Source of the DNA: Escherichia coli
GTDB lineage: Bacteria > Pseudomonadota > Gammaproteobacteria > Enterobacterales > Enterobacteriaceae
Length of the DNA: 2,411 nucleotides
Assembly: GCF_003334305.1 (NCBI RefSeq)
Contig: NZ_QOWS01000055.1
Strand: one strand, 5' to 3'
Shown here: positions 1 to 2,411 of the stretch, piece after piece
How positions within the stretch are numbered: position 1 is the stretch's first letter
Layout: each line of letters starts with the position of its first letter
The notes under the pieces: generated by a model
What the model was told of the DNA's origin: nothing
What the model saw: the letters and a program-made list of their open reading frames with translations, nothing else
Databases searched by the model: none
Program-made: the position numbers and the translations under genes

Positions 1-195
1 TGTTACTTTTGCATCATTTGTGACTGAGATCGCGATTAGCACATCAACCCGATGTTTATTTAATAGACTTCCAGTCTTATCACTCAGGCCAATACTATCT
101 AATCATAAGCAACCTAACAGGATTAATACCGAAAATTCAGCAGTCTATACCCTTTTCATTTCAAAGGGTCGGTCGTATAGTATGGTAACTAAAAC

Positions 196-232
196 AATGT
201 TTACTAATGCCATAATGTTATTTTTATAACAT
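196..232 (+). promoter_or_regulatory. Putative sigma70 promoter and possible operator region of the regulator gene
   Basis: AT-rich tract immediately upstream of the RBS with -10-like hexamers CATAAT (211..216) and TATAAC (225..230) and a weak -35-like TTTACT (200..205). AATGTT is repeated at 196..201 and 214..219, which could be operator half-sites. Exact elements cannot be fixed by eye. Confidence 0.25.
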
Positions 233-238
233 TTTTAC

Positions 239-246
239 GGAGAGAG
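239..246 (+). promoter_or_regulatory. Ribosome-binding site of the DeoR-family regulator gene
   Basis: GGAGAGAG at 239..246, with the GGAG core 7 nt upstream of ATG 250. Confidence 0.6.
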
Positions 247-249
247 TTG

Positions 250-1032
250 ATGGAAACGAAGCAAAAAGAGCGTATCCGACGTTTGATTGAAATACTTAAG
301 AAAACCGACAGAATCCATTTGAAAGACGCGGCACGAATGCTGGAAGTTTCTGTAATGACTATTCGTCGCGATCTCCATCAGGAATATGAACCTCTGCCAC
401 TGACCCTACTGGGTGGCTATATTGTAATGGTGCATAAACCCGCACCATCCATGCCAGTAATCCAGGACGTTCCGAGAAATCATCGTGATGACTTACCTAT
501 TGCAATTCTGGCCGCCGGAATGGTTAATGAAAATGATCTGATCTTCTTTGATAATGGCCAGGAGATACCGCTCGTTATAAGCATGATCCCGGATGCAATC
601 ACCTTCACTGGCATCTGTTACTCACATCGTGTCTTTGTTGCGTTGAATGAAAAACCTAATGTGACAGCAATACTTTGTGGTGGTACGTATCGTGCCAGAA
701 GTGATGCTTTTTACGATGCCAGTAACTCTTCGCCATTAGACTCTCTCAATCCGCGAAAAATATTTATTTCCGCCAGCGGTGTACATGATCACTTTGGCGT
801 CAGCTGGTTTAATCCCGAAGATCTTGCCACTAAGCGTAAAGCGATGGCCCGTGGACTAAGGAAAATTTTGCTCGCCCGCCACGCCTTGTTCGATGAAGTA
901 GCCTCTGCCAGCCTCGCACCGCTCTCTGCATTTGATGTTCTGATTAGCGATCGTCCGTTACCGGCAGATTATGTTACGCACTGCCGGAATGCTTCTGTAA
1001 AGATCATTACACCTGATTCAGAAGACGAATGA
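250..1032 (+). CDS. DeoR-family transcriptional regulator (N-terminal DeoR-type helix-turn-helix, C-terminal DeoR-like sensor domain)
   Basis: Uninterrupted 260-codon frame ending at TGA 1030..1032. The N-terminus (KERIRRLIEILKKTDRIHLKDAARMLEVSVMTIRRDL) fits the DeoR HTH signature, including the characteristic TIRRDL motif. The C-terminal part (ILCGGTYRA...IFISASGVHDHFGVSW...KRKAMARGLRKILLARHALFDE...FDVLISD) fits the DeoR C-terminal sensor fold. The ORF track starts at TTG 247, but ATG 250 sits 7 nt after a GGAG core and is the more likely start. It may be a yfjR-like island regulator of Enterobacteriaceae; that is from memory only and unverified. Confidence 0.9.
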   Translation: METKQKERIRRLIEILKKTDRIHLKDAARMLEVSVMTIRRDLHQEYEPLPLTLLGGYIVMVHKPAPSMPVIQDVPRNHRDDLPIAILAAGMVNENDLIFFDNGQEIPLVISMIPDAITFTGICYSHRVFVALNEKPNVTAILCGGTYRARSDAFYDASNSSPLDSLNPRKIFISASGVHDHFGVSWFNPEDLATKRKAMARGLRKILLARHALFDEVASASLAPLSAFDVLISDRPLPADYVTHCRNASVKIITPDSEDE

Positions 1033-2020
1033 CTTACTGAAAAAACACCGTACTCTTGTTAAACATCGTCGGATTGGACTGATTACGTTGCACTTTCATC
1101 ACATATTCCAGTTTATCAATTTGGCTTATCATCTACTCCAGACGCTGGTCATCATTGACCAATAGTCTGATATGGCTTTTGTCGCGGTCCTGAATCGGCA
1201 GGCAGAAAATGACTTCAACGTTAAAAGGGCGACGGGAAAAAGCCCACAAAGGTGAGTCATTACGCCCGGATAATAAACAGGCTCCTCCCTGTTATGGAAT
1301 CCGTTGTATTGTCCATAATGTCTGGGTTTTTAATGCACACTGGATAACAACCGGACGAATCTTCAAATATCACTGGTGCTGACAGCCGGTTTGAATTCAT
1401 CTCACAACCCTGTATAGAGCGAATCTCCTGCCTGCGCGTCACTCCACTCCATGGTATCAACTTCACACTCTTTATCTGCGGCTAGTTTCAGTCACCAGAT
1501 AAGCATCGACTATGAAAGGTGAGCCATGACAACATAACGTTGGTAACGCTCTGATGCCTTAACGGAAGATGCCTGCCACCACAGGGAATGTAAACGACTG
1601 AAGTGTGGCCTTTAATGCCGTGAACGGCTCATGGTCTCCTGGCACGGTTGCCGCCCCAACCTGTAACAACATTCCACAGTACAATGTCTGTCAGAGCCGG
1701 AGCCTCCCATGCCTGTTGTAGTAACTCTACCAGTTACGAACATCCTTCCTCAAAAGTGTTGTCGTATCTCGCATGGAAGAAAAGATCCTGACTAAGCAGC
1801 AACACACAACGTATTGCGGAACCTGCATGTTTTTCCTGTAACTAGTGTATTACGACATATGGTAATAGCTACCTGTGTGGTTTCGCTGGATAACAAGGGG
1901 ATTTATTCGCAAGTAAAATGCCTGATAAAATACACGAATCTAGTAATCATCAATATTTACTCTGGTCGAATGAAGTGTGAAGTGGATTGCCAGCAGATGC
2001 GGCCAGTGATCCACCGCCTG

Positions 2021-2048
2021 CTTAACAAAACGCCGGATTTCCCCCGGC
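2021..2048 (-). terminator. Candidate Rho-independent terminator for a minus-strand transcript
   Basis: Perfect all-GC 5-bp stem GCCGG (2032..2036) / CCGGC (2044..2048) with a 7-nt loop. On the minus strand this hairpin is followed directly by GTTTTGTTAAG (reverse complement of 2021..2031), a U-rich tail. On the + strand no T-run follows it directly. Confidence 0.3.
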
Positions 2049-2231
2049 TCTGAAAGTAAGGCTTCGGTTATTTGCACTATTTTATCTCTGTTGAATTTGG
2101 TTAAGTCGGTGCAGACTCATCAACACAAGTACGGTTCGATGCAAACAGCTGTGACTGGCAATATGAAAGGAATGATGAATCAGTCAGGATGACAAAGTGC
2201 CGGCTGACCGGAGGGGACGCAGGAAGATTCA

Positions 2232-2411
<180 letters not shown>

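Follow-up and report, generated by a model that had tools for sequence, protein, structure and literature searches.

The closest described relative of the region studied here is the deoQ-deoKPX locus of Salmonella. In the work of Christensen et al. (2003) this locus is said to have divergent promoters in a 324-bp spacer and three operators that DeoQ binds independently, with DeoR reportedly adding repression and catabolite control reportedly acting on deoKPX only. Salmonella DeoQ recognises palindromes (PMC2222622). A second point of reference is the deoCABD operon of E. coli K-12, where TGTTAGAATTCTAACA and TGTTAGAATACTAACA are palindromes for DeoR, a repressor that loops distant operators together and whose effector is deoxyribose-5-phosphate (PMC5326754). 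Within E. coli, a deoK operon has been described in NCTC 86 (PMC5382810) and on PAI II-AL862 at pheV (PMC7545054), and the genes carry the names deoQKPX in E. coli Nissle 1917 (PMC7924626).

Here we compare a further E. coli locus with these systems. The window, by which we mean the whole stretch of 2,411 nucleotides that was analysed, opens with 249 nucleotides that very probably form the greater part of the control region from which deoQ and deoKPX diverge, in a 2-deoxy-D-ribose utilisation regulon with palindromic DeoR-type operators on a pheV-type island. This is a known system, already characterised, and an ordinary one; everything computed here agrees with what is reported for Salmonella. 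For annotation, the result is that predicted DeoQ/DeoR operators, likely promoters and a CRP-like site are placed on an E. coli fitness-island operon, with little beyond this. The deoQKPX operon confers growth on deoxyribose on pathogenic and commensal strains, e.g. Nissle 1917.

The locus and its regulator

The chromosome of E. coli strain A7 matches the window at 100% identity. We fetched the locus from this strain with 8 kb on each side (L001), in which the position minus 8000 gives the position in the window. The spacer between deoQ and deoK-deoP-deoX is 303 bp long and window positions 1..249 are its right-hand 249 bp. The divergent arrangement, with the DeoR-family gene deoQ facing away from deoK-deoP-deoX, is confirmed by the annotation and by NCBIfam matches (Table 1). 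Among complete E. coli genomes the 303-bp spacer is found in 1598 of 5426 (29%). The yghD/gsp genes and island-type cargo adjoin the locus, which fits the pheV island location.

Table 1. Features of the deoQ-deoK region; positions refer to the window, negative positions lie to its left, and L001 is the strain A7 locus.
Feature	Position	Strand	Description
deoX	left of window	minus	aldose-1-epimerase-family, mutarotase-like protein; annotation, NCBIfam
deoP	left of window	minus	FucP-family permease; annotation, NCBIfam
deoK	L001 7026-7946; start codon 54 bp left of window edge	minus	ribokinase-family kinase; annotation, NCBIfam
deoQ-deoK spacer	L001 7947..8249		divergent genes on both sides; 303 bp
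Oa, TGATATTTAAATAACA	-21..-6, just left of window		predicted DeoR-type operator; 16.9 bits
Ob, TGTTACTTTTGCATCA	1..16		predicted DeoR-type 16-bp operator at deoK promoter; 12.3 bits
CRP-like site, TGTGACTGAGATCGCG (TGTGA-N6-TCGCG)	19..34		predicted; conserved, beside deoK promoter
ORF 20..229	20..229	plus	mechanical, 69 codons, GTG start; not a gene
ATGTTTA	52..58	plus	inside moderately conserved TGTTTATTTA stretch
Likely deoQ promoter	153..181	plus	-35-like TTTTCA 153..158, 17-bp spacer, -10 TATAGT 176..181
AATGTT, lone half-site	196..201 (TGTT 198..201)	plus	left half that remains of a weaker fourth site
Oc, inverted repeat AATGTTAT-TTTT-ATAACATT	214..233		core 16-bp predicted operator TGTTATTTTTATAACA, 216..231; 15.1 bits
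Shine-Dalgarno GGAGA of deoQ	239..243	plus	kept in nearly all of 43 species, 6-10 nt ahead of ATG
deoQ	250..1032 (L001 8250-9032)	plus	RefSeq CDS; DeoR-family repressor, 260 aa, ATG 250

The best NCBIfam match of DeoQ is DeoR itself (equivalog NF007961), at 231.1 bits against a cutoff of 244, and DeoQ shares 38% identity with K-12 DeoR. Because the score falls below the cutoff and the identity is of this order, we regard DeoQ as a paralogue of DeoR and not as DeoR. The helix-turn-helix of DeoQ (HLK.AARMLEVSVMTIRRD) does not vary among the 43 species, and the recognition helix, MTIRRDL, is identical to that of DeoR. A start of the regulator at TTG 247 is not borne out: in 26 of the 43 orthologues the stop codon TGA stands directly ahead of the ATG, and for this reason we place the start at ATG 250.

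When the E. coli proteins are compared across genera (L001 against L002-L043), DeoK is 89-97% identical and the adjacent DeoQ 63-85%, with E. coli DeoQ at most 85% identical to that of any other species. Judged by these identities, DeoQ evolves much faster than the DeoK beside it, the invariant helix-turn-helix excepted.

Just past deoQ, the sole annotation in the window is a pseudogene of an ilvN-like 'acetolactate synthase small subunit' (1034..1260, minus strand). It is followed by about 1.1 kb with no annotated gene and then by the start of an IS3-family transposase at 2407. In most other genomes the match to the window ends at 2334. This part of the window, 1034..2411, looks like island junk or a junction.

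Predicted operators and likely promoters

In order to read the spacer in an evolutionary context we scanned one genome per species and recovered 42 orthologous loci from the Enterobacteriaceae and Edwardsiella, which together with E. coli gives 43 sequences. A divergent kinase gene is present at all 42 orthologous loci, including those of two Salmonella subspecies. Their spacers range from 185 to 353 bp, with 324 bp in both S. arizonae and S. diarizonae. In the alignment of all 43 spacers both ends are nearly invariant, and the middle, at about 40..150, is unconserved and rich in indels.

A search for TGTTA-N6-TAACA, allowing up to two mismatches, finds exactly three positions that are common to 41-43 of the 43 sequences. 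These are the predicted operators Oa, Ob and Oc, with one, two and no mismatches in E. coli, respectively. A weight matrix for the operator was trained on the other 42 species only, with E. coli excluded, and random spacers served as the null, their best sites having a 95th percentile of 7.0 bits. The scores of the three E. coli sites are listed in Table 1; the next best position of the E. coli spacer reaches -2.2 bits. The cross-species footprint yields a clean operator consensus, TGTTACTTAAGTAACA (TGTTAC-TTAA-GTAACA), with C/G at positions 6/11.

Two of these sites lie at deoK. The spacing between Oa and Ob is 22 bp in 43 of 43 sequences, Ob holds the same aligned position in 41 of 43, and 32-33 bp separate Oa from the deoK start codon. 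The minus-strand hexamer GTAACA (6..1) is -35-like for deoK and is followed, after 17 bp, by TATCAT (-17..-22), so arranged that the promoter overlaps Ob and Oa. An alternative candidate for the -10 hexamer comes from the invariant 6-bp segment between Oa and Ob, whose minus strand is GATAAT in most species but GCTAAT (-1..-6) in E. coli. Going by the positions of these motifs, the predicted deoK core promoter is covered by Oa and Ob whichever -10 hexamer applies.

The consensus for CRP binding is TGTGA-N6-TCACA. The CRP-like site beside the deoK promoter matches it at 8 of 10 core positions, the right half, TCGCG, being non-consensus, and both TTTGTGA and TCGCGATT are nearly invariant in the 43 species. 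It would stand at about -40 or about -55, depending on the deoK -10 hexamer. With GCTAAT as the -10 hexamer the position is about -40, which would be the geometry of class II CRP promoters. The site would probably activate the deoK promoter. The right half is overlapped by a perfect 8-bp palindrome with a GATC, ATCGCGAT at 27..34, which is almost invariant in the 43 species; a CRP half-site alone would need less conservation. A role for a second factor, or for Dam methylation, is conceivable here.

At the other end of the spacer, the likely deoQ promoter, TTTTCA-17-TATAGT, is the only sigma-70-like match on the plus strand of the spacer. GTATAGT and CTTTT..TTTC are kept in about 38 of 43 species, and from this promoter we would expect deoQ transcription to start at about 188. 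Oc follows the conserved TATAGT by 33-36 bp in nearly all species. With the promoter at 153..181, it would occupy about +28..+43 of the deoQ leader. This is well downstream of the putative start, an unusual place for simple occlusion.

The original prediction had drawn attention to this region for its repeated motifs, namely AATGTT at 196..201 and 214..219 and ATGTTTA at 52..58 and 197..203, all of which are present on the plus strand. It had overlooked one more AATGTT, which lies at 228..233 on the minus strand. This copy pairs with the one at 214..219 in a perfect 8-bp inverted repeat, 100% complementary, and the element (214..233) is nearly invariant across the 43 species. Its core, Oc, fits TGTTA-N6-TAACA without a mismatch, as no other site does in 18.4 kb, and 41 of 43 species have it at this aligned position, mostly as TGTTAC-N4-GGAACA. 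Of 5000 dinucleotide shuffles of 1..249, 24 contain AATGTT two or more times on the plus strand, 5 contain ATGTTTA two or more times, 227 contain a perfect 8-bp inverted repeat, and 3603 (72%) have some 6-mer repeated within 25 bp. The choice of motif was post hoc, so the direct repeat of AATGTT is not significant from the sequence alone. We nevertheless take the observation as real, since 214..233 is conserved and TGTT recurs upstream of it in 36 of 43 species.

This upstream TGTT, 18-22 bp from Oc, marks a weaker fourth site. In other species, in most of which it is intact, the site lies 18-21 bp from Oc and has a median score of 6 bits and a maximum of 12.3, and 23 of 36 exceed the 95th percentile of the null for this position (-0.8). 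The E. coli 16-mer at the same position scores -18.5 bits, by which a full E. coli operator including AATGTT 196..201 was rejected. Only the left half survives in E. coli, and the AATGTT here would therefore be a vestigial or auxiliary half-site. For the ATGTTTA at 52..58 the best 16-mer reaches -9.8 bits, which is below background, and it was rejected as an E. coli operator. Among the 43 species, 10 have a site above the 95th percentile of the null in the equivalent region, at varying positions; the stretch is absent in Edwardsiella and in the species with short spacers. S. arizonae has a further candidate site, GGTTACTTAGTGAACA, near alignment column 54.

Variation within E. coli and in the shortest spacers provides some further detail. 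Ob, Oc and the two originally noted motifs are invariant among intact, diverged E. coli alleles, whose substitutions fall mostly in the middle of the spacer. The allele of the window is a minority one, with 291 records at least 99% identical to it and 1087 at 95-99%. Three intact diverged alleles were sampled (L047-L049). They have TGGTAT in Oa (window -19) where the window's allele has TGATAT, and their deoQ start is set 2 bp further from the ribosome-binding site by an additional GA (window 244..249). The sole plasmid-borne copy of the region, on pEC16-AU-EG1 (L046, NZ_CP194962.1), is decaying: deoQ is frameshifted, the permease gene is frameshifted and has an internal stop, and there are substitutions and a 1-bp deletion in and around Ob.

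Five species have no spacer middle, four with spacers of 185-188 bp (L024, L028, L040, L043) and one with 216 bp (L026). Their spacers still contain the CRP-like site and all three of Oa, Ob and Oc, but have lost both the weaker fourth site and the conserved TATAGT -10. With this -10 lost, deoQ must have another promoter in these species. The distance from Ob to Oc is only 81 bp in the four shortest spacers.

A model of regulation and its alternatives

These features suggest a simple model. DeoQ would bind 16-bp palindromes of the form TGTTA-N6-TAACA. At Oa and Ob, which bracket or overlap the predicted deoK core promoter, it would block RNA polymerase, and at Oc, some 30-45 bp downstream of the putative deoQ start site, it would regulate its own gene. 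The CRP-like site would place deoK under catabolite control, and deoxyribose or its phosphate would release DeoQ. For binding, start sites, the role of CRP and the inducer, the model follows what Christensen et al. (2003) reportedly found in Salmonella. The host DeoR probably binds Oa, Ob and Oc as well, because the sites fit the DeoR consensus.

The original prediction took the region for the promoter and operator region of the regulator, a view that is supported. The autoregulation it proposed is broadly right, but the region also, and mainly, would govern deoKPX on the minus strand; Ob and the CRP-like site stand at the left edge of the window. As for the operator half-sites, AATGTT at 214..219 is half of a predicted operator downstream of the likely deoQ promoter, but the functional unit would be the palindrome at 216..231 and not a direct repeat of AATGTT. 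The copy at 196..201 is conserved, but is just the surviving left half of the weaker fourth site. A role as half-site for ATGTTTA at 52..58 does not hold up, given its score and a position that is not conserved.

The same motifs can be arranged in other ways. If AATGTT (196, 214) and ATGTTTA (52, 197) were direct-repeat half-sites, the regulator would only autoregulate, and some DeoR-family proteins do use direct repeats (PMC2222622). Both copies of AATGTT lie downstream of the likely deoQ promoter and both are conserved, as ATGTT at 197..201 and as AATGTTA at 214..220. However, the copy at 214 belongs to a perfect palindrome in which the right arm is just as conserved, the spacing of the direct copies varies between 18 and 22 bp, and the copy at 52..58 is not a conserved site. 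Moreover, 16-bp palindromes account for the three strongest conserved blocks, two of which are at deoK and not at deoQ. We therefore find a direct-repeat arrangement improbable. Even less credit can be given to the notion that 214..233 acts not as a DNA site but as an RNA hairpin in the deoQ leader, i.e. an attenuator or a stability element. The operator motif is also found at the deoK promoter, where the DNA would be read in the opposite direction, and in most species an A opposite a G at Oc position 5/12 would break the stem, while the letters of TGTT/AACA are invariant. The minimum-free-energy fold of 188..252 does include an 8-bp hairpin followed by a U run, but its energy is ordinary (z = -1.16; equalled by 26 of 200 shuffles). 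The search for terminator-like sites found none, and no Rfam family matches anywhere in the window.

That the region is coding is the least credible alternative, with next to no chance of being correct. In this case ORF 20..229 would be a small gene in its own right, or would hold the 3′ terminus of a plus-strand gene that enters from the left. The frame is indeed without a stop from position 2 to 229, as the original prediction noted. This openness to the left edge is trivial, because a TAG at window -4..-2 closes the frame. The same in-frame TAG, seen on leftward extension, and a left neighbour on the minus strand refute an upstream gene ending at 227..229. The GTG of the ORF lies inside the CRP-like site and its TAA stop inside Oc, its central part (40..150) is unconserved with many indels, and its G+C content is 34.5% against 46.0% for deoQ. 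By tblastn the peptide has no counterpart in the 42 orthologous loci (best E 0.77), and RefSeq has no annotation over the ORF in the genomes listed. The doubt expressed earlier that it codes for a protein was thus justified, and the spurious ORF can be removed from the annotation.

Palindromic operators for DeoQ on both sides of the spacer remain our preferred reading. A more elaborate form of it, which we regard as rather unlikely, has the operators working as tandem pairs, Oa with Ob and the fourth site with Oc, an oligomeric DeoQ forming a loop between them, and autoregulation in E. coli re-tuned by compensatory changes after horizontal transfer. If this were true, a loop of about 230 bp, held by a DeoQ oligomer, would join Oa/Ob at deoK (22 bp apart) to the pair in the deoQ leader, the fourth site and Oc (about 20 bp apart). 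In E. coli the fourth site would have been reduced to a lone TGTT, Oc would have become a perfect palindrome and 24 bp would have been lost downstream. Across species, the Ob-Oc distances give R = 0.48 at a period of 10.5 bp (p ~0.03), with similar R at 12 and 13 bp, which gives helical phasing of the distant operators no clear support.

Comparison with Salmonella and K-12

The likeness to Salmonella extends over the whole region. Gene order and orientation are the same, and the orthologous blocks of the spacer are nearly invariant at both ends. Going by what is reported for Salmonella, the two systems also have in common a weak deoQ promoter, palindromic sites for the repressor, three in each, and a CRP-like site next to deoK. 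The kinases of Salmonella and E. coli are 94-95% identical and the DeoQ proteins only 82-83%. The spacer is 303 bp in E. coli and 324 bp in Salmonella, and E. coli lacks about 24 bp in the interval from Oc to the ribosome-binding site. The Oc of E. coli is a perfect palindrome (TGTTAT..ATAACA), whereas Salmonella has TGTTAC..GGAACA or TGTTAC..GAAACA. The fourth site beside Oc reads TGTTCTCAGAAACACA in Salmonella and is decayed in E. coli, and Ob has one more mismatch in E. coli than in Salmonella.

The resemblance to the K-12 deoCABD system (O1/O2/OE) is one of architecture. The same search with TGTTA-N6-TAACA finds both DeoR operators given at the outset, upstream of deoC; 279 bp further upstream, counted from the first deo operator, there is a third site, which is weaker. 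The two systems share the 16-bp TGTTA-N6-TAACA format, several separated operators, an identical recognition helix and deoxyribose-5-phosphate as the theme of the pathway (PMC5326754). The repressor is different, DeoQ being 38% identical to DeoR and under the NCBIfam DeoR cutoff. The distances between operators are 22 and 215-237 bp here and 279 and 599 bp in K-12 deo, and, unlike K-12 deo, the deoQ-deoKPX region has a divergent, autoregulated arrangement.

The operators themselves differ at positions 6/11, which are C/G in DeoQ-type sites (T/A in Oc) and G/C in K-12 O1/O2. The inner positions of O1/O2 (TGTTAGAA / TTCTAACA) are matched neither by Oc nor by the 43-species consensus. Positions 6/11 (window 216..231 against K-12 L044 365-380 and 964-979) are thus a candidate discriminator between DeoQ and DeoR, and the inner operator positions could serve the study of how two paralogous repressors whose recognition helix is the same keep their targets apart or hold them in common.
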